DNA of 64,000 nt from Ignavibacteriota bacterium (lineage in GTDB: Bacteria > Bacteroidota > Ignavibacteria > UBA10030 > UBA6906), in assembly GCA_963837815.1 (NCBI GenBank), contig CAWIOS010000015.1:258774-322773 (forward strand), written 5' to 3'. A program made the translations under genes and the position numbers. The notes beneath the pieces were generated by a model, which searched no databases, was not told where the DNA came from, and saw nothing but the letters and a program-made list of their open reading frames with translations. Positions 7,854 to 21,811 of this stretch are shown in pieces. Numbering within the stretch: the stretch's first letter is position 1; each line of letters opens with the position of its first letter.

Positions 7854-10000
7854 CAGTAATCATTCCCGGCTGCGGGAGGAATCTTCAGCTGATCGAAGAG
7901 GAACGCATAGACGTCCGTCTCCTGCGCGATCTGGTCGTCGAGCGAACTGCCGAACCCGTGACCGCTCGCAGGACTCGTGCGCAGGAGGATCGGAAATGCC
8001 GCGCCCGTCGCCGCCTGGAGCCTTGCCGTCATCTTCCGGGAATTCGCCGGGTCGACGCGCCCGTCGTTGTCCCCGGTGAGCATCAGCACCGCCGGGTACT
8101 TCACACCGTCGACGACGTGCTGGTACGGCGAGTATGCGTACAGTGCCCTGAATTGTTCGGGATCCTTCACGCTCCCGAATTCCGTCACGTTGAACGCGCC
8201 GTTCGGGAAAAGCTCGAACCGGAGCATGTCGTAGAGCCCCACGTGGCTCACGACCGCGCGGAAGAGTCCCGGTCTCTGCGTCAGTGCCGCCCCCATCAGG
8301 AGCCCCCCGTTGCTCCCGCCCTCGATCGCGAGCTTCTCCGGGGAAGTGTACCTCTTTGCCACCAGGTACTCCGCGCATGCGATAAAGTCGTCGAAGACGT
8401 TCTGTTTTTTCGTCAGCCTCCCGGCGTCATGCCACGTTTCCCCGAACTCCCCGCCCCCCCGGAGGTTTGCGTCCACGTAGATCCCCCCGTGGTCCATCCA
8501 GAGCCGGTTGGTCCGGAGGAACCGCGGCACCTCGGAGACGTTAAACCCGCCGTAGCCGTAGAGAAGCAGGGGGCTCTTTCCGTCTAATGCCGTACCCGTG
8601 CGTCGTATGATGTTCATCGGGATCTTTGTCCCGTCCATGGACGTGGCGGAGTCCCGTATGACCTCGCAGTCGGCGTAGGAGATTCCCGAACTGTTCACGA
8701 GCCTTGATCTGGCTGCGCTGTTGGACATCGGGTCGTACGTGAAGTACGCGAAATTCTCGAGATACGTCTCCGCGCCGTAGAGCACCGTATCCCCCCGGAG
8801 GGGGATGAGGCCGTACACCGTCGCAACGGGCGCTGTCGGCAGCATTGCCCTGAACATCCCGTTCTTGTCGAAGACGCGCACACGTGACGGCCCGCCGATC
8901 AGATCGACGACGTAGAGCCTGTCAGTTCCCGGGAGCATGGCGGTGATGACCGCGTTGGATTGGGGGACGATCGTCTTTGCGGACCGGAGATCGGGCCTGG
9001 CTAGTGGTACGGTCCTGATCATTCCGCGGGGAGCGTCCTTTACGGAGAGGAGATAGAGAATCGCATCTCTGCCGAACGCCGCCTCGGTAACCCCGTCGCT
9101 GAAATCCGCAACGCGCGTCCATCGTTCGCCCGGACCCATAAGGTAGAGCGCAAATTCACCGCCGTCGCCGTTCGCAACCCTCACGAGCAGGTACTTCGAG
9201 TCCTCGCTCATGGAGAGCGAAATCTCCGCGATCCTGGGGAAGTCCTTCCCCGTCACGTACCTGTCCCGTGAGGCCGGCGTGCCGAGCCTGTGGAAATAGA
9301 CCTCCTGGTAGAAATTTTCGTCGCCGGCCGGACGCTCGTTCCCCTGGGGGTACCGCGTATAATAGAAGCCCGAAGCATCCCTGTTCCACGCAATGCTACC
9401 CCCCGCGGTCGGGAAATTGACACGAGGAACGACGTCGCTCAGTTTTCTTCCCGATGCCGTTTCGAACACCGACGCCGTACCGTCTTCGCTCCCGTTTCTC
9501 GAAAGGGACACGGCGACGAGCTTCCCGTCCCGTGACGGAACGTAGAAATCAATCGACGTCGTCCCGGTGCTGTCAAGCACGTTCAGATCCAGCACCGTAT
9601 GTTCCGAGGAGAGATCGTTCGGGGAGTCGAACGTGACGAGGATCGGCTGTTCCTTCGTGCCCTGGTGCTTGAGCGCGAAGATCTTCCCCCGGAAGAATCC
9701 CGCGTCGTACGACACCGAATTCCCCCCGTAGATCTGTTTCAGCCGCGTGGCGATTGCGGCGCGGGAGGCGACCTTGTCGAGTATCGAGCGTGAGAGCGCA
9801 TTCTGCGCCTCCACCCACGAAATCACCTGGGGATCGTTCCGGTTTTCGAGCCACCGGTAGCTATCCACAACGGATGTGCCGTTGTAGACGTCCGTCACCG
9901 GTTGCTTCGCACTCGGAGGATACGGAGGGCGCGATGGGGTGCATCCGCCGATCAGGGCGGCGGCCGCGACAAGTGCTGCAATCGTGCGCATTCGGAACAT
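7853..10000 (-). CDS. Prolyl oligopeptidase (S9A) family serine peptidase, lipoprotein
   Basis: The N-terminal beta-propeller region has PPYPPSAKQPVTDVYNG...DSYRWLEN. The catalytic serine nucleophile is in GGSNGGLLMGA. The likely start is the internal MFRMRTIAALVAAAALIGGC (lipobox). Confidence 0.85.
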   Translation of the reverse strand: MFRMRTIAALVAAAALIGGCTPSRPPYPPSAKQPVTDVYNGTSVVDSYRWLENRNDPQVISWVEAQNALSRSILDKVASRAAIATRLKQIYGGNSVSYDAGFFRGKIFALKHQGTKEQPILVTFDSPNDLSSEHTVLDLNVLDSTGTTSIDFYVPSRDGKLVAVSLSRNGSEDGTASVFETASGRKLSDVVPRVNFPTAGGSIAWNRDASGFYYTRYPQGNERPAGDENFYQEVYFHRLGTPASRDRYVTGKDFPRIAEISLSMSEDSKYLLVRVANGDGGEFALYLMGPGERWTRVADFSDGVTEAAFGRDAILYLLSVKDAPRGMIRTVPLARPDLRSAKTIVPQSNAVITAMLPGTDRLYVVDLIGGPSRVRVFDKNGMFRAMLPTAPVATVYGLIPLRGDTVLYGAETYLENFAYFTYDPMSNSAARSRLVNSSGISYADCEVIRDSATSMDGTKIPMNIIRRTGTALDGKSPLLLYGYGGFNVSEVPRFLRTNRLWMDHGGIYVDANLRGGGEFGETWHDAGRLTKKQNVFDDFIACAEYLVAKRYTSPEKLAIEGGSNGGLLMGAALTQRPGLFRAVVSHVGLYDMLRFELFPNGAFNVTEFGSVKDPEQFRALYAYSPYQHVVDGVKYPAVLMLTGDNDGRVDPANSRKMTARLQAATGAAFPILLRTSPASGHGFGSSLDDQIAQETDVYAFLFDQLKIPPAAGNDY

Positions 10001-10943: not shown

Positions 10944-11984
10944 TCATTCTTCGTCAATGACCCATGTATCCAGCAGATTCTCGGGAAGTCCGGCGATGAA
11001 CCGGGAAGGTTTGGAGAGGACGAGCCCCGACTCGCGGTCGTAGATGTTGATAGGATACGTGATGAAGAGATTCTGCTGCGCCCTCGTGCACGCCACGTAC
11101 ATCAGCCGTCTCTCCTCCTCCATCGAATCCTCGCTCATCGCCGCGCGGCTTGCAGGGAATCGTCCCTCGAGCGCGTATATGACAAACACCGTGTGCCATT
11201 CGAGCCCCTTCGCGCTGTGGATTGTCGAAAGCACGAGCTTTTCGTCGTCTGTCCCCGGGGCCGTAATGTCGGTGACGCTCTCCGTGGCGGGCTCAAGCGC
11301 CAGGTCGGTCAGGAGCGTCCCCAGCGACCGGTACCGTTCGGTGATCTGCTGGAACATCTCGAGATCCTTCCGCCGCTTGTTGTAATCATCGTAGCGGCGT
11401 TTGAACACCGGCTCGTAGTAATTCAGGAGCATCTGCACCTTGTCGGCCGGAGCAATGTGCGCCGGGCTCGCGTCTTTGAGTATGCCGAACAGGTCGCTCA
11501 CACGGTCCGGGTACCCGGCGAATCCTGTCCAGAACGCCGGGAGTGACCGGGAAGTATCGCCCCCTCCTCCGGATGTTGTCGCACGGCGCGCGAGCACGTC
11601 TTCGATCACTTTCTCCGCCGTCCGCGGGCCCACACCTTCCACGAGGAGAAGTATCCGGTTCCACGCCACCGCATCGCGGGGATTCTCAAGGACGCGGAGG
11701 TACGCCACCATGTCCTTGATATGCGCGGTCTCGATGAATTTGAACCCGCCGAATTTGACAAATGGGACGTTTGCCTTGTTCAGTTCAATTTCGAGATCAA
11801 ACGAAAGGTATCCTGAGCGGAAGAGGACGGCGATCGTGTTGAGGAGGATTCCCTGCTCCCGGAGCTCGAGAACCTTTTGCACGACGAACTTGGACTGGAA
11901 GTTTTCGCTTTCCGCCACCACAATCGTCGGCAGCTCCCCGCCGGGCTTATGCGTGAAGAGCTCTTTCTGGAATTTGTGTCTCAT
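10944..11984 (-). CDS. UvrD/PcrA-family helicase, C-terminal half (domains 2A/2B, motifs IVa-VI)
   Basis: Motif V is TIHSAKGLEWHTVFV and motif VI is LMYVACTRAQQNLFITY. Its N-terminus, MRHKFQKELFTHKPGGELPTIVV, continues exactly where the upstream half ends (compare E. coli UvrD ...GRLGKKLWTDGADGEPISLY). Confidence 0.85.
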   Translation of the reverse strand: MRHKFQKELFTHKPGGELPTIVVAESENFQSKFVVQKVLELREQGILLNTIAVLFRSGYLSFDLEIELNKANVPFVKFGGFKFIETAHIKDMVAYLRVLENPRDAVAWNRILLLVEGVGPRTAEKVIEDVLARRATTSGGGGDTSRSLPAFWTGFAGYPDRVSDLFGILKDASPAHIAPADKVQMLLNYYEPVFKRRYDDYNKRRKDLEMFQQITERYRSLGTLLTDLALEPATESVTDITAPGTDDEKLVLSTIHSAKGLEWHTVFVIYALEGRFPASRAAMSEDSMEEERRLMYVACTRAQQNLFITYPINIYDRESGLVLSKPSRFIAGLPENLLDTWVIDEE

Positions 11985-12919
11985 GAGACTGCTCCCGATA
12001 TCGCCCGGATGTAGTCAGGTGTTGTTCCGCAGCACCCCCCGATGAACGATGCCCCGGCGTCTACCCATTGACTTGCAAGCCCTGCGTACTGTTGAGGGCT
12101 GACATCCCTTCTGAGGCCCGCCCCCTGTTCCTCGCCGGTACGTCCGACGTTCGCATAGACGCCGACGTGCAGTTTTCCGCCGGCATGAAACTCATCGAGC
12201 GCAGACAGCATCGCGGTCAGCGGACGGCCGATCTCGTCTGCGGACACGCAGTTGATTGACAGCGCCGCAGGTGAAAGAGCCGCGACCTGTCGTACCGCTT
12301 CTGCAATCGGCTCGCCGCCGAACAGCGGGCCATCCGGCATGCAGAGAAAACTGACGACGTACTCCAACCCGGTTTCACGCGCGGCACGTGCGGCCGCAAG
12401 TGCCTCCCGTATCGTCCCCATCGTCTCGAGAAGAAGAAAATCAACTCCTGCATCTTTGAGACGCGCGGCCTGCTCACGATGTTCGTCTCGCAGTGCCGGG
12501 TCCGGGGGGACCAATTCCGCATGATAGCAATCCTCGAGCGGCGCGATGGAGCCTGCAAGAATCACCCGCCGGTCAGGAAACGACGTGATCGATTCCCGCG
12601 CAATCGTCACCGCGAGCGCCGTAAGCTCCGCCGATCGGTCGGGGAGCCCCGCCCCCCGGAATGTTCTTCGCGTCGTCCTGAACGTATTGCTCGTGATGAT
12701 ATCCGCCCCTGCCCTTATGTAGTCGTCGTGTATCTGCCGAACGGTTCCCGGCGAGGCAACGAGCGCGTTGGCAGACCAGAGCGGGAGGGCCGTCGCGACT
12801 CCCCGCCGCTCCAGCTCCGTCCCCATCGCCCCGTCGAGTATCGCCGGCTTCCGCTCTGCGAGGAGGCGTGCAAGCGGTCCCGTTCCGGTTTCACTCCCGT
12901 GCGCGGCGGAGGATTTCAT
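11981..12919 (-). CDS. Homocysteine S-methyltransferase family protein (MmuM/BHMT-like, Pfam S-methyl_trans)
   Basis: It has the LDGAMGTELERRG motif and the Zn-binding GGCCGTTPDYI motif. It is in a different reading frame from the two helicase halves and overlaps both junctions (by 29 nt and 4 nt). Confidence 0.8.
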   Translation of the reverse strand: MKSSAAHGSETGTGPLARLLAERKPAILDGAMGTELERRGVATALPLWSANALVASPGTVRQIHDDYIRAGADIITSNTFRTTRRTFRGAGLPDRSAELTALAVTIARESITSFPDRRVILAGSIAPLEDCYHAELVPPDPALRDEHREQAARLKDAGVDFLLLETMGTIREALAAARAARETGLEYVVSFLCMPDGPLFGGEPIAEAVRQVAALSPAALSINCVSADEIGRPLTAMLSALDEFHAGGKLHVGVYANVGRTGEEQGAGLRRDVSPQQYAGLASQWVDAGASFIGGCCGTTPDYIRAISGAVS

Positions 12920-13880
12920 TTGTAAGGTTCAGTATCGGCTGGGTGCTCCGGTAATTCTCCTCGAGCTTGACAAGCGTGCATCCCGGAAATGCTTCCGGGA
13001 AGTCGAGTATGTTCCGGATGGTCGCCCCGCGGAATGAATAGATCGACTGCGCGTCGTCCCCCACGACCATGATATTCCCGTGGGAGGAGGCGAGGAGCGA
13101 CACAATCTCCGCCTGTATCTTGTTCGTGTCCTGGTACTCGTCCACCATGATGTAGCGGAACCGGTCCGAAATCGTCCGCCGCACCCTGTCGTTGTCGCGC
13201 AGGAGTTTCCTGAGGTAAATCAGAAGGTCGTCATAGTCCATCATGTTATGACCGGCCTTGTATTGTTCGAATGCAGACTGGAGCTTCAGGATTTCATCCA
13301 GGTAGTCCTCATAATGCGGGTAGTCCTCTTTCAGTATGTCCTTGACCGGTGTCAGCGTGTTCACCGCGCGCGAGAAAATGGTGTACAGCGTCTGCTTGCG
13401 CGGGAACCGCTTCTCTTTAGTGTCGTACTTGTGCTGGGTGCGGAGGAGATTGACGACGTCCTCGGCGTCCCCCTGGTCGAGTATCGAGAACGACGAATCG
13501 AAATCGAGGAGCGGCGCGTACTGGCGGAGGATGAGGTTGGCGAACGAGTGAAACGTCCCGCCGGCGACCTTCTCGCAACGGGCGTCGAGGAGCATGGAAG
13601 CGCGGCGAAGCATCTCCTGCGCCGCGCGCCGGGTGAACGTCAGGAGGAGGATCGACTCGGGCTTCACGCCGAGCTCCACGAGATACGCGACCCGGTACGT
13701 GATCGTGCGCGTCTTCCCCGTGCCGGCCCCGGCGATGATAAGGTGCGGCCCGTTCACCGAGGAGACCGCCTGGTACTGCGCCGGGTTGAGCTGGTTCTTG
13801 TAGTCGATCCGGAAATGCCGCGGGGGCTCCGGTTCCGGAGCGTCCTTGAAGAGAGATTTCTTGAGCGTGTATTTCTTCAT
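12891..13880 (-). CDS. UvrD/PcrA-family helicase, N-terminal half (motifs I-IV)
   Basis: Motif I is AGAGTGKTRT, motif II is MVDEYQDTN, motif III is VVGDDAQSIYSFRGA, and motif IV is ENYRSTQPIL. It ends with ...NEILRRARE. Confidence 0.85.
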   Translation of the reverse strand: MKKYTLKKSLFKDAPEPEPPRHFRIDYKNQLNPAQYQAVSSVNGPHLIIAGAGTGKTRTITYRVAYLVELGVKPESILLLTFTRRAAQEMLRRASMLLDARCEKVAGGTFHSFANLILRQYAPLLDFDSSFSILDQGDAEDVVNLLRTQHKYDTKEKRFPRKQTLYTIFSRAVNTLTPVKDILKEDYPHYEDYLDEILKLQSAFEQYKAGHNMMDYDDLLIYLRKLLRDNDRVRRTISDRFRYIMVDEYQDTNKIQAEIVSLLASSHGNIMVVGDDAQSIYSFRGATIRNILDFPEAFPGCTLVKLEENYRSTQPILNLTNEILRRARE

Positions 13881-13901
13881 TGCCTTCCGGCGGAATCCCG
13901 C

Positions 13902-14898
13902 TTACAGCGTCTCGACGGGGTACTTGTCGATCAGGTCAAGTATTGCCTCGATCGTCTTCGGTGAATTTCCCTCTGCCCTGTTGTTCACGTACGCGTAGAG
14001 CTGGCGCCCTTCGGCGACGCACCGCCGGACTGTCTCCGCAAGCCCCTGGCGGAGTTCGGGGTTTTCCTCTTTGATGGATTCGTACGGCTGGAAGAGATCC
14101 ACGGCCTCCTGATACGTTCTCCCGGGTTTCAGCAGCGCCCGCGCCACCGAGAATCTTGCGCTCAAGACGCCCGAGAGCTGAATCTGCTCCATGATCGGCG
14201 GCATCTTCGTCCAGCTGTTCAGGACGTGTGCGGCGCCCCTGTCGGCAAGCATCGTAAGGTAGTCGCCCGTCAGGTACTCCCTGTTCCGTATCTCGACCGC
14301 GTACGAGAACTCCTTCGGGAGGCGGGCGAGGAAGTCGTCCATAAGCCTGAGAAACTTTTCGTACGTCACCCCCGAGTTCGGATAGAACGCCGAGAATTCG
14401 AATATGATCACCCCGCGCTTTTTCCGCAGAGACTCAACCGGGCGGAGAAACGCGTCTTCGAAGAGCTCGAGATTCAGGAAATCCGGGTTCTCCCGACCGG
14501 CATTCGCTCCGTGACGTGGCAGGTTCGGATAGCGCCTGACGGTGATACGGTCGGTCACCTTCAGCGACAGCCTGAAATCATCCGTGGTGCTGTCATGGAT
14601 GATCTGCATCTGGTGCGCGTCCGGGAAATCATAAAGCGCGAAATCGGCGCACACGGTCGGGAAAAGACTGGAGTACTCGGTAATACATTCCCTCGCAAAC
14701 GCCTTCTTCGACGGGTACGCCCTGGTGTAGACAATCCCCTGCCACCCCGGGTACTTCCACGACGAAGACCCGAAATAGATCCCCCTGCTCGCCCAGCGGT
14801 GAAGCCGTTCGCGGTTGCGCTCGACGTACGGGGACTCCGGCGCAGTGACGTCGTCGAAGAGCGGGAGCGTATCCGGAGACTGTTTCTTCTTCGCCATG
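13902..14898 (-). CDS. DUF72 (YecE/UPF0759) family protein
   Basis: The start is MAKKKQSP. It has the family motifs ...IYFGSSSWKYPGWQGIVY... and C-terminal ...LYAYVNNRAEGN. Confidence 0.75.
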
Positions 14899-14982
14899 CC
14901 CCAATATAACACACCGGTGAGGAAAAAGAAAAAGCCCGCCGGGAGCGCCGGCGGGCAGTAGCGATGCGTCAGGCGAAAATGA

Positions 14983-15763
14983 CTACCGCAGCGACGCAAG
15001 CCCGAAAACTTTGACCAGGGTCCAGAGTACCCAGAGCGCGAAGACAAGCACGAGCACCTTGGGCGTGTCCTTCTGGAAAAGGCGCGCGAGTCCGATCCCC
15101 GTCACCGCAAGCGTCCAGAACGTGAACACGTTCACCGAAGCGGCTAGAAGATGCATCTTGTTCTCGAGGGAGAAGTCGGAGACAAACAGCGCGAGGCTCG
15201 GCGAGGCGAACATCGAGCTCATGCCGATTGCCAGGATCGTCGTTACGACGCTTTCGATCATCGAGATGAAGAACGTGAGCCCCACCACCTCGACGACCTT
15301 CATGTACGGTACTGTCGCCTTCATCACCCCTCTTCCGAGTAGCCAGAACACGAGGCCTCCGAGGAACAGCGCGAAAAACGGCCCGAGGATGGCGCTGACG
15401 TACGAAAATATGAGTGTGCCGGTCTGTCCCATTCCGGCCATCTGGTCGCGGGCCTGGCTCGCCTGCTCCTGCGTCATTTTGCCCGCCGCGATCTGCTTCT
15501 GCAAGCCTTTTTCCATCTGCTCGCTTGCCATCCGTTTCATCTGGTCTGAGAGAACGGGATTGCTCGTCATCAGGTACGCCATGATGATGCCGACGACGAC
15601 GAGTACCAATGTCGGAATCACCCAGTTGCTGCTCGTCGGAGGGGTTTGCCGGACATTGTCGAACAATTCTGAAGGTGAGGCAAACACGCCGACGAGTTTA
15701 TCACTGAACGACATCGGCTTCACCTCTTCCGTCGGGGCAGCCTGTACCGGAGTTTCGCTCATG
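14983..15763 (-). CDS. Yip1-domain integral membrane protein
   Basis: It has five predicted TM helices and a Yip1-like organisation. The likely start is MSETPVQ, with AAGGA 9 nt upstream. Confidence 0.55.
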
Positions 15764-16110
15764 GGAGGGGATCCTTCTTGTGTGGGGGTGTTCGGGACGG
15801 GAAAAATGTACAAAACGGAACACTGAGAAGAAAGGCGGAAAAAAACGGAAAACAACACGCCGGCACCCCATCCTGCCGGGGGACAGGACGGGGTGCCCGG
15901 CTTGCCGTCGTCGTGCGGTCCGTGGAAGCGGCGGGTCGGCGGCGGCGGAACGACGTTCTCCCCGGCCCCCCTCCGGTGCCGGGGTGCCGGTACAGGTAAC
16001 TACATGTTTCTGCGGACGTTTGCGAGATCGGATGGAATTTATTTTTATGCGGGAGCTCTCCGCGCGTTGTCCCTCAACGACTTCACAAGTTTTCCCCGGG
16101 AACGCACACG

Positions 16111-16160
16111 ACAAATTTGTTGTCTGATTATTGACAACACGACAAAAATGTCGTATCATT
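16111..16160 (+). promoter_or_regulatory. Promoter (TTGACA-N18-TATCAT) overlapped by three palindromes: ACAAATTTGT, GTTGTC-N8-GACAAC and ACGACA-N4-TGTCGT. This is a candidate damage-response (LexA-like) operator.
   Basis: Read directly from the sequence at 16111-16160. It lies immediately upstream of the Zn-ribbon/dinB/polB cassette. An RBS, AGGAGGTGAA, sits at 16204-16213. Confidence 0.5.
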
Positions 16161-16216
16161 TTTCCGGGCCCCGCGCCCCCGAACTATTAATGTTTCGCCG
16201 AACAGGAGGTGAACCC

Positions 16217-16471
16217 GTGATCCGCACCGAACTGCTGTATGTCCTGTCGCCGGCGGAATGCTGCGTGTGCGAGCGGACATTGAGCGCCCGCGAGCTGGAG
16301 GAATTTTACGGAATGGCGGACGACACGCTGAGGGGAGACATCCAGTGTCCCTCCTGTGCCCTCCACACCCTGACACTGTGCCGCGAATGTTCATGCCGCT
16401 ACACGGCGGACCCGGGTGGCGTGTGCGGGGAATGCCAGAGACACGACTATGCGCACATTCTTTCTTCTTGA
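16217..16471 (+). CDS. Small Cys-rich zinc-ribbon protein (about 84 aa)
   Basis: It has a GTG start with a strong SD. There are four Cys pairs (CCVCE, CPSC, CRECSC, CGEC). It overlaps the dinB start by 23 nt. Confidence 0.45.
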   Translation: MIRTELLYVLSPAECCVCERTLSARELEEFYGMADDTLRGDIQCPSCALHTLTLCRECSCRYTADPGGVCGECQRHDYAHILSS

Positions 16472-17672
16472 CATCGATTGTTTCTTCGCCTCCGTCGAAA
16501 TGGCCCTGCACCCTGAACTCCGCGGCAAACCGCTGTGCGTCGGGGGACTGCGCACCGACAGGGGAATCGTCGCGTGTCCGAACTACGAGGCACGGAAATA
16601 CGGCGTGCGTACCGCCATGCCGTTGCGTACCGCCGCCCGGCTTCTTCCGTCGCAGGCGGTATTCATGCGCGGAAGCTACCGGCTCTACGGCGAATATTCG
16701 GAAAAAGTCATGACGATACTCCGGGATTTCACCCCCGACATGGAACAGGTGAGCGTGGACGAAGCGTACATGGACGTGACCGGGTGCCTGCATTTCTGGG
16801 GACACGACCCACGGCGCATGGCGGAGGCGATGAAGGAGCGGATATGGCGCGAATGCGGGCTGAGCGTTTCGATCGGCGCTGCATCGAACAGGGTATGCGC
16901 GAAGATCGCCGCCTCCGTGAACAAGCCGGACGGGCTCGTCGTGATACCGCCGGGGGCCGAGCGCGAGTTCCTGGATCCGCTCCCGGTGGAAGCCGTTCCC
17001 GGCATCGGTCCCCGGACGCTTCCGCATCTCCACACGCACGGCATCAGGACGGTGCGGGAGGCCGTGACCTACGTCGAGCGCAACACGCGTGCGACCGGAC
17101 AGTATCCCCCCCTGCGCGAGGAACGGCTCCGCACGTTTTCCCTCTGCTCCTTTATCGCCTCATGCGCCCTCCCGTCCGACGAGGCGATACTTCCGCACGA
17201 TCACGTCGAGAAATCGATTTCCCGCGACAGGACATTCGGTACGGACACCGCCGACAGCGAGCGCGTGAGCGCCACGCTCTACTGCCTCGCGGAACGCTGC
17301 TGCAAGACGCTCCGGCAGGATGAGCTCCTTGCCTCCACCGTCACCGTGCGCGTGCGGTTTGCCGACTTCGCGACGGTGCAGAAACAGTCCACGCTCCCCC
17401 GTCCCTCGTCGAACGAAGAAGACGTCTTCGCCGCCGCCCGGCGGCTGCTCGCGGCGCTTTCCGCGCCGGGGCAGCTCGTCCGTCTTGTCGGCGTGAAGGT
17501 GTCCAATCTGTCGGGGGCGGAAGAAGCCCAGCTTGACCTCGGCGTCACCGCCTCGGAAAAATTCGGCGCGCTCCACCGGCGGCTGGACGGCCTCCAGACC
17601 CGGTACGGGTACGACAGCATCCGCTGGGGGATCACCTGCAATGCGGCGGAGCGGCGGGAGGAACGGGAATGA
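16449..17672 (+). CDS. dinB: DNA polymerase IV (Y-family translesion polymerase)
   Basis: The catalytic residues are present in LLDIDCFFASVEM and SVDEAYMDVTG. Other DinB motifs are GIVACPNYEARKYGV and GIGPRT. Confidence 0.9.
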   Translation: MRTFFLLDIDCFFASVEMALHPELRGKPLCVGGLRTDRGIVACPNYEARKYGVRTAMPLRTAARLLPSQAVFMRGSYRLYGEYSEKVMTILRDFTPDMEQVSVDEAYMDVTGCLHFWGHDPRRMAEAMKERIWRECGLSVSIGAASNRVCAKIAASVNKPDGLVVIPPGAEREFLDPLPVEAVPGIGPRTLPHLHTHGIRTVREAVTYVERNTRATGQYPPLREERLRTFSLCSFIASCALPSDEAILPHDHVEKSISRDRTFGTDTADSERVSATLYCLAERCCKTLRQDELLASTVTVRVRFADFATVQKQSTLPRPSSNEEDVFAAARRLLAALSAPGQLVRLVGVKVSNLSGAEEAQLDLGVTASEKFGALHRRLDGLQTRYGYDSIRWGITCNAAERREERE

Positions 17673-18574
17673 TCGCATACGGCGACGACCCGGGGGAGCA
17701 GCTCCTTCCCCGCCTCCGTGCATGGAGGAGGCACAGCATCCATATCGGTCTCTCCCCCCGTTCGTCCGCGTTCTGGAGCGGGCTGCTCTACCGGGAGCCG
17801 CGCGGGGTCATACGGGAATATGCCCGGCTCTTCGACACGGCCCTGCTCCCCTGCGACCGCCGGTGCGGGCCCGATCCCGTGCTCCTTGCCCGGATGAATG
17901 GACAGGCCGGGGACGGCTTTGCATGGACGCTCTTCATCGACGACGGACCGGTGGTGTACCGGTTTCCGTACGGGCATCCCGACAGGAAAGCGCGGGGGGA
18001 AGTCAACCCGCATTTCCTTGACCCCGGGTGCATTGCCGGAACGTTCACGCCCGTGGCGCGGATTCTGGGGTCCTCCGTCCGTCTCGTGATGCTGAAGATC
18101 GGGAACGTCTGCAGGACTGAAGCGATGGATTTCGACGGATTCCTCCGCGCGCTCCTTCCCTGCCTCGACGCGCTCCCCCCGGCATACAGCTACGCGGTTG
18201 AAAACGGCACGTCCCGGTTCATACTGCCGGAGTACCTTGGAGCCCTGCGCGAGCGGAACATCATTCACGTGCCGGCGCCCGTTCCGCTTCTCGACGCCCT
18301 CCGCATCCCCGGCGCGTTCGGGACCGGCACCTGCGTGCTGCGCACGGCGTGCCTGGCGATGGAGGAAGAAGGAGAAGAATGGGCGGGATTCCGCGAGGCG
18401 GTCCGCATCTGCATCGGAGAAGAAAAGACGCTCTACGCATATCTCACGGATGGGGAAGAAACGGCGGTGTCCCCGGCGCCGGGCGGGACCGGCGCGCGCG
18501 CGCTCACACGTCTCCTGGCCGGGCTCGACCCCGAACTCGCCCGCCGCTCACCCATACGACGAAAAGCCGCGTGA
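17669..18574 (+). CDS. DUF72-like protein (divergent paralog of the 13902-14898 gene)
   Basis: Its start overlaps the dinB stop by 4 nt (ATGA-type overlap). It has IHIGLSPRSSAFWSGLLY, corresponding to IYFGSSSWKYPGWQGIVY in the paralog, and the C-terminal LYAYLTDGEE, corresponding to LYAYVNNRAEGN. Confidence 0.5.
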   Translation: MIAYGDDPGEQLLPRLRAWRRHSIHIGLSPRSSAFWSGLLYREPRGVIREYARLFDTALLPCDRRCGPDPVLLARMNGQAGDGFAWTLFIDDGPVVYRFPYGHPDRKARGEVNPHFLDPGCIAGTFTPVARILGSSVRLVMLKIGNVCRTEAMDFDGFLRALLPCLDALPPAYSYAVENGTSRFILPEYLGALRERNIIHVPAPVPLLDALRIPGAFGTGTCVLRTACLAMEEEGEEWAGFREAVRICIGEEKTLYAYLTDGEETAVSPAPGGTGARALTRLLAGLDPELARRSPIRRKAA

Positions 18575-18578
18575 CGTC

Positions 18579-19364
18579 ATGACCACCGATCCGCCCGTTC
18601 CGTACACGCAGCTCGTGCAGCAATTCAAGTCCGCCCCGCCGGGAAAACTGTACTGCATTCACGGTACGGGGGGCGTCTTCCGCATCTCCCTTGCGGCGGC
18701 GGCGCACGTGCTCCTGGGCGGCATGCCGGTGACGCTCGTGGACGGCACGAACCGGTTCGACGCGTACTACCTCGCCGAGTTCGCGCGGAAACACGCGGGG
18801 GTGCGCCCGGACGGGAGGAGGATCACCCCGGAGAGCCTGCTTGACAACATATTCATCTCCCGTGCGTTCACCTGCTACCAGATGGAAGCCGTGATCACGG
18901 AGCGCCTCCCCCTTTTCGTCCGGCAGAAGGGCTCCCCCGTCGTCATCATATTCGGCCTTCTCGACACGTTCTACGACGAGCAGGCGCCGCTCTTCCAGGT
19001 GAAAGCGGGACTGGAGAGGATTGCCGTCGCACTCCGGGCTCTCAAACAGGACCAGATCGCCGTGCTTCTGGCCTCGCTGGACGTGAAGCTCGACTCGAAG
19101 GAGCGAAACGCGCTGTTCCCGCGCATGATGGCGGTCATGGATCGCGTGTACCGACTCGTCGGGGACGCGGGGAGCCAGCGGCTCCTGCCGGAGATTCTCA
19201 CCGGGGCAACCGGCGCACGGGGGGAAAAGAACAGTCATACGACAAAGGAGGGCGCATTCCATGGGACGGACCGTACCGACGTTCACGATGGTCATCCAGC
19301 AGGAGATGGAAAGCTGGGGAAAATTCCGGCGCGGGCTGCGCAGGGAAGACCAGGAGGCGCTTGA
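18579..19364 (+). CDS. RecA-fold protein with a degenerate P-loop (ImuA/SulA-like)
   Basis: The start is MTTDPPVPYTQ, 4 nt after the upstream stop. It has the degenerate Walker A GTGGVFRIS (no GKT/S), a Walker-B-like hydrophobic strand VVIIFGLLDTFYDE, and a low-complexity C-terminal tail. Confidence 0.5.
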   Translation: MTTDPPVPYTQLVQQFKSAPPGKLYCIHGTGGVFRISLAAAAHVLLGGMPVTLVDGTNRFDAYYLAEFARKHAGVRPDGRRITPESLLDNIFISRAFTCYQMEAVITERLPLFVRQKGSPVVIIFGLLDTFYDEQAPLFQVKAGLERIAVALRALKQDQIAVLLASLDVKLDSKERNALFPRMMAVMDRVYRLVGDAGSQRLLPEILTGATGARGEKNSHTTKEGAFHGTDRTDVHDGHPAGDGKLGKIPARAAQGRPGGA

Positions 19365-19554
19365 CGAACTCTTCCGCGCGGCGCGCCTCCAGCTTGCGGG
19401 GAGCGCCTACGCCGCACGGCCGATCCCCTTCGAAAGCATCGCCATGTGCATGCTCCTGGCGCAGCACAGGATCATCGCGGACCTGCAGCAGCGGATGAAA
19501 CAACTGGAAGCAGCGCATGACGACAGCGCGGACAATCACCGGGTGGCTGTTTGA
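19288..19554 (+). CDS. Small all-helical hypothetical protein. It overlaps the 3' end of the ImuA-like ORF and the 5' end of polB.
   Basis: It is in a third reading frame and reads MVIQQEMESWGKFRRGLRREDQEALDELF.... Its stop overlaps the polB start by 38 nt. Confidence 0.3.
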   Translation: MVIQQEMESWGKFRRGLRREDQEALDELFRAARLQLAGSAYAARPIPFESIAMCMLLAQHRIIADLQQRMKQLEAAHDDSADNHRVAV

Positions 19555-21811
19555 CCTCTATCCGTCACGGCAGGGAATCACCCTCTGGCTTGTGGACCGT
19601 GACGGGGCGAAGCACTGCTGCCACGACGCGTTCGCCCCGTGGTTTTACATGCATGTCCCGCCTTCGGACGAGGCGCGCGTCGAGGCAATCGTGCGCCTTT
19701 TTCCGTTCCGCGTCACGCTCGACAGGACGGTGCGGAAGGAAATCTACACGAACGAAGAATGGGACGTCCTCCGCGTCACCGTGCATGACACGCTCCACCT
19801 GAAGGACGTCGTCCGCCGCCTCGAACCGCACTTCCCGCATTTCGTCTTTTTCGATTCCGACATCTCCTCTCAGCAGCTCTACCTCTACAGGACGGGGCTC
19901 TTCCCGCTTGGCTTCGCCGAGTACACGATCGACGAAGAGGGGCGTCTCGCCGGATGGAAACTGGACGACGATCCCGCCGCGCTGGAATACCTGCTCCCAC
20001 CCCTTGTGACGATGACGCTCAAGAGCATCCCCGACTTCGTCTCGCCGAAATACCGGAAGACGTACCAGCTCGAGGTCGGGTACGAGGGGAGCATGTACGC
20101 GCTCGAAAACGAGGAGCCGGCCGAGGTGATCGGATCGCTCAACCGCCATCTCACGCGGTGCGACCCGGACATCATTATGACCGAATTCGGGGATGCCATA
20201 CTCCTCCCGATGCTCACGCGCATTGCGGCCGAGGAGGGACTCCCGCTTGCACTCAACAGGGACCCCGATGCGGGGTACTTTACGACAGGCGAAACGAGCT
20301 ACTTCGCCTACGGCAAAATTGTCCACAAGGACGGCGCATTTGAGCTGGCCGGGCGCTGGCACCTTGACACGGAGAACTCGTTCATGATGGGGGAAGCAAG
20401 CCTCGACGGCGTCGCGGAAATCGCGCGCCTGACGCAGCTTCCCGTGCAGCACCAGTCCCGCGCGACGATCGGCTCGGCGCTCTCCTCGATGCAGCTCTCC
20501 TGGGCGTCGCGCAACGGGTACCTCATACCGGCCAAAAAACGGGAGCCCGAGGAATTCAAATCCGCCTCCACGCTCCTCCTTGCCGACCGCGGGGGGCTCA
20601 TATTCCAGCCTGTCATGGGATTCCACGAACAGATCGCGGAAATGGACTTCGTTTCGATGTACCCCACGATCATGGTCGAGCACAACGTCTCCCCGGAGAC
20701 CGTCAACTGCCGCTGCTGCCGCAACGAAGCGGTCCCCGAACTGGGCTACACGATCTGCGAGCGCCGTGAAGGGATCGTCCCCGCCACGCTCCGCACCGTC
20801 GTCACGAAGCGGGCCGCGTACAAGAAGACCAGGAAAGCCCTCAAGCGCGCCGGGGACGGGAAATGGAAGCTGTACGACCGCCGGCAGAATGCGCTCAAAT
20901 GGATGCTCGTCACCTGCTTCGGCTACCTCGGTTACAAGAACGCCCGTTTCGGGCGGATCGAGGCGCACGAATCGGTAAACGCATTCTCCCGCGAAGCGAT
21001 CCTGCGCGCCAAGGAAATTGCGGAGGATCGGGGATACAAATTCATACACGCGATCGTGGACTGCATGTGGCTCTGGAAGGAGGGGGCGACCGAAGCGGAT
21101 TACGAATCACTCGCCCTGGAGGTGCGGAAAATCGTCGGGATCGACATCTCGCTCGAGGGGATGTACAACTGGATACTCTTCCCCTCGTCGAAGATGGATC
21201 CCCGCATACCGACCGCCAACCGGTACGTCGGCTGGTACGCAAACAACGAGATCAAGATCCGCGGCATCGAAGTCCGGAGGCGCGACACCCCCGTCTTCAT
21301 AAAGCGCCTCCAGGGGGAAATGCTCCAGATATTCGGCACGGCGCCCACCGTTGCAAAGCTGGAAGAACTCATCCCCGCGGCCCTTGCGAAGGCCGGCGAA
21401 GCGGTCGCGCTCCTCCGCTCCGGAACGGCGAACCCGCTCGAGCTTGTCATCCGCCGCCACCTGTCGCGTGACCCGGAAGAATACACGACAAACACCGCAA
21501 GTGCCGGCGCGGCGAAAGCCCTCGACGAGGCGGGCGTCCATCTTGCGCCGGGGGAAATGGTCGAATACATCATCGTGGACGCTTCCGGGAAAAAGAAGCC
21601 CGCGAAGGCGCTCCCGGTCCCCCTCTACGAATCCGCCGAAGGGTACGACATCGAAACGTACACCGACATGGCGCTCAAAGCCGTTGAGACGCTCCTCCTG
21701 CCGTTCGGGTACGACGTGGAGAAGCTGCGCGAAGTGTTCGGCTGCTCGCTGAAGAAGAAGTTCCCGGCCATCTCCCGCGACACGGTGCAGGGGTCACTCT
21801 TCGATTGCTGA
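19517..21811 (+). CDS. polB: B-family DNA polymerase, predicted proofreading-deficient (Exo I motif lost) with a divergent motif C
   Basis: Motif A is DFVSMYPTIM and motif B is KWMLVTCFGYLGYKNARFG. Motif C is IHAIVDCMW instead of IYGDTDS. The Exo I position reads VTMTLKS where Pol II has VSIDIET. At 764 aa it is about the length of E. coli Pol II. Confidence 0.8.
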   Translation: MTTARTITGWLFDLYPSRQGITLWLVDRDGAKHCCHDAFAPWFYMHVPPSDEARVEAIVRLFPFRVTLDRTVRKEIYTNEEWDVLRVTVHDTLHLKDVVRRLEPHFPHFVFFDSDISSQQLYLYRTGLFPLGFAEYTIDEEGRLAGWKLDDDPAALEYLLPPLVTMTLKSIPDFVSPKYRKTYQLEVGYEGSMYALENEEPAEVIGSLNRHLTRCDPDIIMTEFGDAILLPMLTRIAAEEGLPLALNRDPDAGYFTTGETSYFAYGKIVHKDGAFELAGRWHLDTENSFMMGEASLDGVAEIARLTQLPVQHQSRATIGSALSSMQLSWASRNGYLIPAKKREPEEFKSASTLLLADRGGLIFQPVMGFHEQIAEMDFVSMYPTIMVEHNVSPETVNCRCCRNEAVPELGYTICERREGIVPATLRTVVTKRAAYKKTRKALKRAGDGKWKLYDRRQNALKWMLVTCFGYLGYKNARFGRIEAHESVNAFSREAILRAKEIAEDRGYKFIHAIVDCMWLWKEGATEADYESLALEVRKIVGIDISLEGMYNWILFPSSKMDPRIPTANRYVGWYANNEIKIRGIEVRRRDTPVFIKRLQGEMLQIFGTAPTVAKLEELIPAALAKAGEAVALLRSGTANPLELVIRRHLSRDPEEYTTNTASAGAAKALDEAGVHLAPGEMVEYIIVDASGKKKPAKALPVPLYESAEGYDIETYTDMALKAVETLLLPFGYDVEKLREVFGCSLKKKFPAISRDTVQGSLFDC

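Follow-up and report, generated by a model that had tools for sequence, protein, structure and literature searches.

What does it mean that a bacterium encodes a Y-family and a B-family DNA polymerase together in one tightly packed run of genes, and to what kind of system do the two belong? The question is raised by a 64,000-nucleotide stretch of DNA from an Ignavibacteriota bacterium (contig CAWIOS010000015.1, forward-strand positions 258,774 to 322,773; the whole stretch is referred to here as the window), in which six open reading frames (ORFs) lie on the plus strand between positions 16217 and 21811. All six had been placed there by an initial annotation made from the sequence alone, and all six were found in the ORF calls. 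We conclude that these co-directional genes form a damage-tolerance operon, which consists of the core of the bacterial PolB2 mutasome (iRadA-PPB2-PolB2) and three additional co-transcribed genes. The six genes, with the evidence by which each was identified, are as follows.

16217..16471, plus strand: small Zn-ribbon protein, 84 residues, GTG start; first gene of the operon; four invariant CxxC pairs.
16449..17672, plus strand: DinB (DNA polymerase IV), Y-family, 407 residues; Pfam, NCBIfam and motifs.
17669..18574, plus strand: degenerate DUF72-family TIM-barrel protein, 301 residues; paralogue match, AlphaFold2 (AF2) fold and homologues with PF01904.
18579..19364, plus strand: iRadA (the RecA-fold ORF), 261 residues with a core of ~205; PDB profile search and Foldseek search of an AF2 model.
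19261..19554, plus strand: PPB2 (the small ORF), 97 residues, a small helical partner of PolB2; MGRTVPTFT N terminus and DUF8156 in orthologues.
19517..21811, plus strand: PolB2, B-family polymerase, 764 residues; PF00136, motif A and C alignment and match to a catalogued PolB2.

The product of the last gene matches PF00136 in Pfam and scores ~398 bits against the NCBIfam models for "type B DNA-directed DNA polymerase" (NF004418 and NF004416), which is under their curated cut-offs of 692 and 516. Only residues 279 to 738 align with solved archaeal PolBs. In an alignment to KOD-type PolB, motif A is intact (DFVSMYPT pairs with DFRSLYPS), and motif C reads HAIVDC opposite the YSDTDG of family B, so that IVD replaces DTD and the first Asp of the DxD is substituted. 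Because an intact motif A together with an IVD motif C is the hallmark of PolB2, we identified the protein as PolB2. It is 58% identical (E = 2e-170) to 399 residues of an Ignavibacteriales PolB2 printed in Supplementary data 1 of Timinskas, Timinskas and Venclovas (2025; PMC11791011), and that paper's supplementary table lists PolB2 proteins of Ignavibacteriales and Bacteroidota with IID or IVD. The exact sequence of the window protein is not on record; its homologues comprise 5,844 matches, the best 120 clusters of which are 69 to 96% identical and come from metagenome-assembled genomes of Ignavibacteriota and Bacteroidota.

It had been predicted in the initial annotation that this B-family polymerase lacks proofreading, and the alignments agree. 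Residues 1 to 278 could not be aligned significantly with the exonuclease domains of PolBs; in a weak alignment, the Exo II segment GDNFDFAYL lies opposite GDAILLPML, with the catalytic Asp gone, and inspection revealed no Exo I DxE motif. As judged from these comparisons, the 3'-5' exonuclease of PolB2 is predicted to be inactivated and the enzyme to be proofreading-dead. At the other end, the protein terminates in ...VQGSLFDC, in which QGSLF is a β-clamp-type motif, and Qxx[LMIF]F occurs within the final 25 residues of 78 of 120 close PolB2 homologues. β-Clamp motifs have been reported in PolB2 or iRadA of the bacterial mutasome (PMC11791011), with which the QGSLF of the window PolB2 agrees.

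The RecA-fold ORF has no Pfam or NCBIfam match. Searched against the PDB, the single iRadA sequence reached a best E value of only 1.3, and a profile of 20 iRadA orthologues gave RadA/Rad51 proteins as its five best matches (E values of 0.023 to 0.37). Because these sequence and profile matches were weak (E = 1.3 and 0.023, respectively), a comparison of folds was needed, for which AF2 models were built on alignments assembled from the protein-search matches. The core of the iRadA model has a predicted local distance difference test score (pLDDT) of 85 to 96, and its 50 best Foldseek matches are Rad51 paralogues, RadA, Rad51 and DMC1 (top E = 4.5e-9), bar FlaH at rank 45. The P-loop position reads HGTGGVFR and contains no GK[ST], and, after the Walker B strand VVIIF, an invariant Gly stands where Asp is expected. 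The modelled fold and these motifs identify the predicted protein as iRadA, derived from RadA/Rad51 and with both Walker A and Walker B inactivated. The RecA-type fold with a degenerate P-loop proposed in the initial annotation is thus upheld; its label "ImuA-like" holds as an analogy only, the protein being RadA/Rad51-derived and no match to ImuA, ImuB or DnaE2 being found in Pfam or NCBIfam at an E value of ≤0.1.

Downstream, the N terminus MGRTVPTFT is invariant in 17 of 17 orthologues of the small ORF, and the orthologues bear PF26485/DUF8156. MGRT has been published as the signature of the PPB2 N terminus (PMC11791011), and because of this N terminus and the presence of DUF8156 in orthologues, we identified the small ORF as PPB2. 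The iRadA and PPB2 ORFs overlap by 104 nt, which the initial annotation had not recorded, and iRadA residues ~209 to 261 (...HGTDRTDVHDGHPAGDGKLGKIPARAAQGR...) are a tail read in an alternative frame of the PPB2 N terminus (window 19261-19364). This tail recurs in some related loci (L006, L013-L015, L019, L025 and L029) and is disordered in the AF2 model (pLDDT of <50). About half of the loci end before the tail, so we set aside the idea that it is a functional overprinted peptide; its recurrence is probably a by-product of the conserved PPB2 N terminus in another frame. In one Bacteroidota lineage (L003, positions 8918-9457, and L004), a 179-residue ORF without a Pfam match lies between iRadA and PPB2, giving an "interspersed" form of the operon.

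Of the genes upstream, DinB is the most readily identified. It matches PF00817 (IMS; 2.8e-45), PF11799 (IMS_C; 2.9e-29) and PF11798 (IMS_HHH) in Pfam, exceeds the cut-off of NCBIfam model NF002677 (264.2 bits versus 256), and shows the catalytic acidic motifs LDIDCFFASVE and SVDEAY in its translation. The annotated Y-family polymerase is accordingly a polymerase IV by domain, model and motif, and its catalytic site is predicted to be intact, as first proposed.

These identities decide what kind of mutasome the operon contains. Timinskas, Timinskas and Venclovas described an iRadA-PPB2-PolB2 operon of archaeal origin that reached bacteria in a single transfer, and iRadA-PPB2-PolB2 is the sole gene order reported in bacteria (PMC11791011). 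The window has the same three proteins in the same order, all on one strand. An IVD motif C, a dead exonuclease site and an inactivated RadA paralogue are common to both, as are a PPB2 with the MGRT N terminus and its own Shine-Dalgarno sequence and a β-clamp-type motif on PolB2. DUF72 and a LexA-type regulator are recurrent neighbours in both settings, and members from Ignavibacteriota and Bacteroidota are already catalogued: the same paper reports that lexA, SRAP and DUF72 are enriched beside polB2, and the supplement annotates operons as "DUF72 iRadA PPB2 PolB2" or "LexA iRadA PPB2 PolB2", the former for the PolB2 that is 58% identical to ours. Genes with an IMS domain lie near polB2 in 56 of the 1,823 operons of Supplementary Table S1 (PMC11791011), of which group 1a accounts for only 4 and group 4 for 6; the paper does not discuss this link. 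Hence, the initial annotation's view that the combination was undescribed does not hold: the last three genes are iRadA-PPB2-PolB2, DUF72 and lexA are enriched neighbours, and IMS genes appear in that table. The association of DinB with polB2 is already recorded, but it is rare and unexplored, and the operon is not a new kind of mutasome, its core and its association with DUF72 and LexA having been described. The bacterial PolB2 mutasome operon is reportedly also covered by Makarova et al. 2014 and Kazlauskas et al. 2020. The window differs from the published operons in that its unit adds a DinB predicted to be active and a lineage-restricted Zn-ribbon protein, in that the DUF72 beside the core is a degenerate paralogue bearing a new, conserved basic tail, and in that no regulator gene adjoins it; furthermore, the operator and the HTH_3/S24 type of repressor discussed below are, as far as we can tell, not described in PMC11791011.

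The same results bear on the view taken in the initial annotation, that the cassette is a new analogue of imuA-imuB-dnaE2 in which a B-family polymerase replaces DnaE2 and a RecA-fold protein replaces ImuA. The general logic is indeed common to both, each combining SOS-type control with a RecA-superfamily accessory protein (its P-loop dead in our case), a member of the Y family and an error-prone polymerase of a replicative family. However, the components are nonhomologous: a RadA-type accessory, a predicted active DinB and a B-family polymerase here, and ImuA, an inactive ImuB and the C-family DnaE2 there. Homology ties the last three genes to the published operon of archaeal origin, the structural neighbours of the accessory protein are RadA/Rad51, the Y-family member appears to be an active polymerase IV and no catalytically dead ImuB, and the Pfam and NCBIfam searches found none of the three Imu-type families. 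We consider this reading very improbable, and as a claim of novelty or of homology it is refuted by the iRadA-PPB2-PolB2 homology.

Is the whole set a single transcription unit? The junctions are as first annotated, with a 23-nt overlap between the Zn-ribbon gene and dinB, a 4-nt ATGA overlap between dinB and the DUF72-like gene, a 4-nt gap between the latter and the RecA-fold ORF, and a 38-nt overlap between the small ORF and polB2. Good Shine-Dalgarno sequences stand ahead of three ORFs (Zn-ribbon, DUF72-like and small); AGGAGG sits 7 nt upstream of the Zn-ribbon GTG start, and the PPB2 start is preceded by AGGAGG at 8 nt, within the iRadA ORF. The third-codon-position G+C content is 0.73 to 0.83 for each of the six ORFs. 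No convincing terminator was found inside the operon, a whole-window Rfam scan at the gathering threshold returned no RNA family, and one strong promoter was found, with the following elements.

16131..16159, plus strand: sigma-70-type promoter, TTGACA (16131-16136), 17-nt spacer, TATCAT (16154-16159); 11 of 12 consensus positions.
16139..16154, no strand assigned: proximal operator, a perfect palindrome, ACGACAAAAATGTCGT; fills the promoter spacer and touches the −10 element.
16108..16123, no strand assigned: distal operator, ACGACAAATTTGTTGT; one mismatch to ACGACA-N4-TGTCGT, 31 nt upstream of the proximal copy.

The initial annotation had described a promoter overlapped by three palindromes. 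The promoter and two operator copies are real, and the third palindrome is a by-product of the two copies plus the −35 element. The layout ...ACGACA-W4-TGTYRY...TTGACA-N2-ACGACA-W4-TGTCGT-AT... is kept in all 24 related loci for which upstream DNA is available, whatever the composition of the operon, and the distal copy occupies an equivalent place in most of them. Because gene order and operator recur in independent genomes in which PolB identity falls to 68 to 70%, the arrangement goes beyond chance. With its overlaps, ribosome-binding sites and one promoter with operators, the set looks like the single damage-regulated transcription unit that the initial annotation had proposed.

To see which of the six genes belong together, we compared 25 distinct Ignavibacteriota and Bacteroidota loci with enough upstream DNA. 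The core, iRadA-PPB2-PolB2, is present in every one; the genes ahead of it vary.

Zn-ribbon, DinB and DUF72-like (the six-gene form): 6 loci, plus the window.
DinB and DUF72-like, no detectable Zn-ribbon: 4 loci.
Zn-ribbon and DUF72-like: 3 loci.
DUF72-like alone: 1 locus.
Zn-ribbon alone: 4 loci.
None (core only): 7 loci.

The co-conservation expected of the cassette thus stands for the core, and it does not stand for the Zn-ribbon, DUF72-like and DinB genes, which are modular. Since they are missing from many related loci, these three are dispensable for the core. Where DinB is present, it lies immediately upstream of the DUF72-like gene (10/10 loci).

The DUF72-like protein of the window has no match to PF01904 in Pfam at an E value of ≤1. 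It is nevertheless, as had been suggested, a relative of DUF72: it is 25% identical (BLASTP E = 3e-19) to the product of the divergent gene at 13902..15047, a bona fide DUF72 that itself matches PF01904 at 2.3e-27, and PF01904 is present in 15 of 58 homologues of the DUF72-like protein (34 to 60% identity). Its AF2 model (pLDDT of 87, predicted template modelling score of 0.88) has as its best PDB matches the DUF72 structures 1VPQ (1.9e-8), 1VPY and 1ZTV; next come xylose-isomerase-like barrels, among them an apurinic/apyrimidinic endonuclease. Sequence searches of the PDB, whether with the DUF72-like profile or with the sequence of the bona fide DUF72, did not retrieve any DUF72 structure. 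Most operon copies, the window protein among them, carry other residues at positions that are invariant in canonical DUF72, namely the strand 1 Trp, the strand 3 Lys, the ExR-strand Arg and the last-strand NN; in some operon copies, the N-terminal strands have been lost. Canonical DUF72 lacks the basic C-terminal tail, LA(R/K)xSP(I/F)(K/R)(R/K)xAA (window 18530-18574, ...LARRSPIRRKAA), that is invariant in all of the operon DUF72-like proteins. On this pattern of residues, the operon protein is probably a divergent, noncatalytic DUF72 paralogue. A further motif, YRFPYGHPDRxKRGExNxxFLD, is common to the operon DUF72-like proteins and has a related form in the bona fide paralogue. No functional study turned up in the DUF72 literature.

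The Zn-ribbon protein, whose four CxxC pairs are all invariant, has no Pfam or NCBIfam match and is rare, with 18 representatives among 1.84 billion clustered proteins. In L012 (7704-8963), it is joined to the DUF72-like protein in one ORF. The DUF72-like part in L012, like that in L048, retains the canonical GASSW first strand.

This mixture of constancy and modularity can be explained in two ways. In the first, the three upstream genes would be independent SOS genes that are co-regulated with PolB2, sharing its promoter and each acting alone, with neither a hand-off nor a complex. Their presence in only part of the related loci fits this explanation, the core evidently working without them, and so does the occurrence elsewhere of canonical DUF72 and other repair genes on their own behind the same operator. 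However, the placement of DinB just ahead of the DUF72-like gene in all 10 loci that have it, the ATGA overlap and the fusion of Zn-ribbon to DUF72-like suggest that co-location of these three goes beyond chance, and the DUF72-like protein has lost family invariants while a bona fide copy stays next door, which is typical of a subunit-like paralogue. We regard independent action as unlikely, albeit a serious contender. In the second explanation, which we consider fairly probable, the locus is a chromosomal, damage-inducible translesion synthesis operon in which a PolB2 mutasome core has recruited a two-zinc ribbon protein, DinB and a degenerate DUF72, the polymerases acting as an inserter-extender pair. 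Such a pair is suggested because the predicted active DinB sits on the same mRNA as the PolB2 complex.

If the operon is damage inducible, what might regulate it? Other lineages offer a candidate. A scan of metagenome contigs for the 18-mer ACGACAWWWWTGTCGTAT identified 120 contigs (numbered L035-L154), 41 of which have the TTGACA-N2-operator layout. Beside the site, 22 of the 120 encode a protein of ~216 residues that combines a helix-turn-helix (HTH) domain of the HTH_3/phage-CI type with Peptidase_S24 (Pfam E values of 1.1e-11, 9.2e-9 and 1.9e-26). The operator lies 40 to 95 nt upstream of the start codon of this gene in the seven contigs measured (42 to 64 nt in six of them). The gene is divergent from iRadA-PPB2-PolB2 in seven contigs and from a canonical DUF72 (PF01904, 1e-44) in others. 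An operator beside an HTH_3 + S24 gene is a sequence pattern that suggests an autoregulated SOS-type repressor. Also found behind the TTGACA-N2-ACGACA-W4-TGTCGT promoter are canonical DUF72 (L044, L073, L083, L087, L103 and L116), an SPL-like radical SAM enzyme (L110), TcmP-like proteins (L039, L093, L133 and L145) and, with TTGACA-N1 rather than N2 spacing, SocA/Panacea antitoxin-like proteins (L035 and L055). We view the genes behind this shared operator as a candidate regulon of the HTH_3 + S24 repressor.

The initial annotation had raised the possibility of a lexA gene upstream. Neither the window nor related loci L001-L034 gave a tblastn match to Escherichia coli or Bacillus subtilis LexA or, in a later search, to the HTH-S24 repressor. 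A repressor of this kind is therefore presumed, rather than located, for this organism. A similar type of regulator is documented in the noncanonical LexA of Bacteroidetes (CI-type HTH + S24; PMC8565304), where a phage-CI/XRE-type HTH-S24 autopeptidase acts on a short palindrome, its spacer rich in A/T, to control the genes of translesion synthesis polymerases. The motifs differ, being CTAA-N5-TTAG and GGA-N5-TCC there and ACGACA-N4-TGTCGT here, and the two repressors are likened by domain type. That study makes no mention of polB (Sanchez-Osuna et al. 2021; PMC8565304), and no relevant published LexA motif for Ignavibacteria, Chlorobi or Balneolaeota was found in the literature.

From the gene identities, folds, synteny and operator conservation that we observed, we infer damage induction, complex formation and cooperation of DinB with PolB2, along the following lines. 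A dimeric, self-cleaving HTH + S24 repressor encoded elsewhere in the genome would bind both ACGACA-N4-TGTCGT operators, one inside the −35/−10 spacer and its partner three helical turns upstream. DNA damage would lead to RecA-stimulated autocleavage of the repressor and so free the promoter, and a single, translationally coupled mRNA would then deliver DinB as the inserter along with the PolB2 complex as the mismatch extender. PolB2 would be complexed with one iRadA and a PPB2 trimer, following published modelling, and would reach the β clamp via its C-terminal QGSLF; a PolB2:iRadA:PPB2x3 heteropentamer able to bind the clamp is predicted in PMC11791011. The Zn-ribbon and DUF72-like proteins would probably serve as noncatalytic or lesion-binding accessories of the DinB step; this assignment is the weakest step of the scheme.

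The division of labour between the polymerases is modelled on archaea. Archaeal Dpo2/PolB2 is damage induced, has no exonuclease activity, inserts poorly opposite lesions and extends mispaired termini efficiently (PMC8764526); its damage induction, lack of exonuclease and extension of mispaired ends are given in PMC11791011 as well. In Sulfolobus islandicus, as would be the case here, an exonuclease-free B-family extender, Dpo2, stands alongside a Y-family inserter, Dpo4 (PMC8764526). The systems differ in that damage induction there has been linked to an Orc1/Cdc6 homologue, whereas in the window both polymerases lie on one predicted mRNA behind a bacterial SOS-type operator, and the clamp motif of the window is of the β-clamp type. 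The initial annotation's comparison with eukaryotic Rev1 and Pol zeta fits this archaeal knowledge by analogy (PMC8764526): in Rev1/Pol eta plus Pol zeta, too, a Y-family inserter is followed by a proofreading-deficient B-family extender with accessory subunits. The analogy is functional only, the subunits and their regulation being unrelated.

Several observations weigh against translesion synthesis by a recruited inserter-extender pair. Many loci lack DinB, the Zn-ribbon protein or the DUF72-like protein, and co-transcription is no proof of cooperation. The word "degenerate" as applied to the DUF72-like protein refers to the loss of residues that are invariant in the family, not of known catalytic residues. 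Neither the window nor the 10 kb around the operon in any Ignavibacteriota locus yielded a repressor gene, and because of this the link between operator and repressor rests on other lineages. To our knowledge, there has so far been no experimental study of bacterial PolB2, be it of expression or biochemistry.

A more ambitious version of the preferred explanation would make the operon a larger, two-polymerase machine specified by a single mRNA. DinB would insert, the DUF72 paralogue and the Zn-ribbon protein would recognize the lesion or act as tethers, PolB2-iRadA-PPB2 would extend, and control would lie with a CI-like HTH-S24 repressor with an uncatalogued type of LexA box and a regulon that includes canonical DUF72. 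Taken as a whole, we find this proposal distinctly doubtful.

The surroundings of the operon speak to another question, whether it is native to the chromosome. The intergenic region upstream is shared with a divergent set of genes.

10944..15858, minus strand: Yip1 membrane protein, bona fide DUF72, UvrD-like N-terminal half, S-methyltransferase-like protein and UvrD-like C-terminal half.

Yip1-DUF72-UvrD(N) adjoins the PolB2 operon in about 18 loci; a PMT glycosyltransferase on the other flank is found only in the closest relatives. Because Yip1, DUF72 and UvrD(N) are conserved neighbours in so many loci, we regard the cassette as a chromosomal locus that is modular and vertically maintained, rather than as an island. 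An island that is mobile or was acquired recently (a phage, a casposon-like or an integrative element) and carries its own B-family polymerase would accord with the horizontal transfer of PolB2 from archaea to bacteria (PMC11791011) and with the defence- or phage-like character of some genes behind the same operator elsewhere (SocA/Panacea and TcmP-like). Besides the shared flanks, however, no compositional break was found across the region, it has no associated integrase, tRNA or terminal repeat, and a polymerase without proofreading or the canonical DxD is unsuited to the replication of an element. A mobile element is thus scarcely credible, and we rejected it on the conserved flanks, the uniform composition and the lack of integrase, tRNA and terminal repeats.

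By inference, the divergent Yip1/DUF72/UvrD set may belong to the regulon of the operon. A conserved noncoding stretch of ~60 nt (...CGTTTGCGAGATCGGATGGAATTTATTTTTATG..., within window positions 15990-16070) lies 70 to 120 nt upstream of the distal operator and is present only in the closest relatives, L001, L006 and L027; it has no Rfam match and may be the promoter of the divergent set. Within that set, the UvrD-like helicase is split on the minus strand into an N-terminal half (12891..13880) and a C-terminal half (10944..11984); the intervening homocysteine-S-methyltransferase-like gene (PF02574, 11981..12919) is complete and overlaps its neighbours by 29 and 4 nt. This layout is repeated in L005; in L001, only an 83-residue ORF was called at this place, and in L003 the S-methyltransferase gene lies 2 kb upstream of the PolB2 operon, with no UvrD.

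Judged against the searchable literature, three features of the locus are possibly new: the six-gene form, with its fixed DinB-then-DUF72-like module and Zn-ribbon protein; the degenerate nature of the operon DUF72; and the operator, paired with a probable repressor of the HTH-S24 type. The operon thereby offers a compact and well-conserved test case for bacterial PolB2, in which a presumed extender complex and a predicted inserter, DinB, are brought together on one mRNA that appears to be damage regulated. DUF72 is tied to translesion synthesis in two ways, through a degenerate paralogue within the operon and through canonical copies behind the same operator elsewhere, and ACGACA-N4-TGTCGT and the HTH_3 + S24 protein make up a testable operator-repressor pair for an SOS-type response in these poorly known soil and sediment bacteria. 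Should the two-polymerase machine prove real, it would provide the first functional context for DUF72, in translesion synthesis or lesion processing, and would represent a bacterial counterpart of polymerase switching in the style of Rev1 and Pol zeta.

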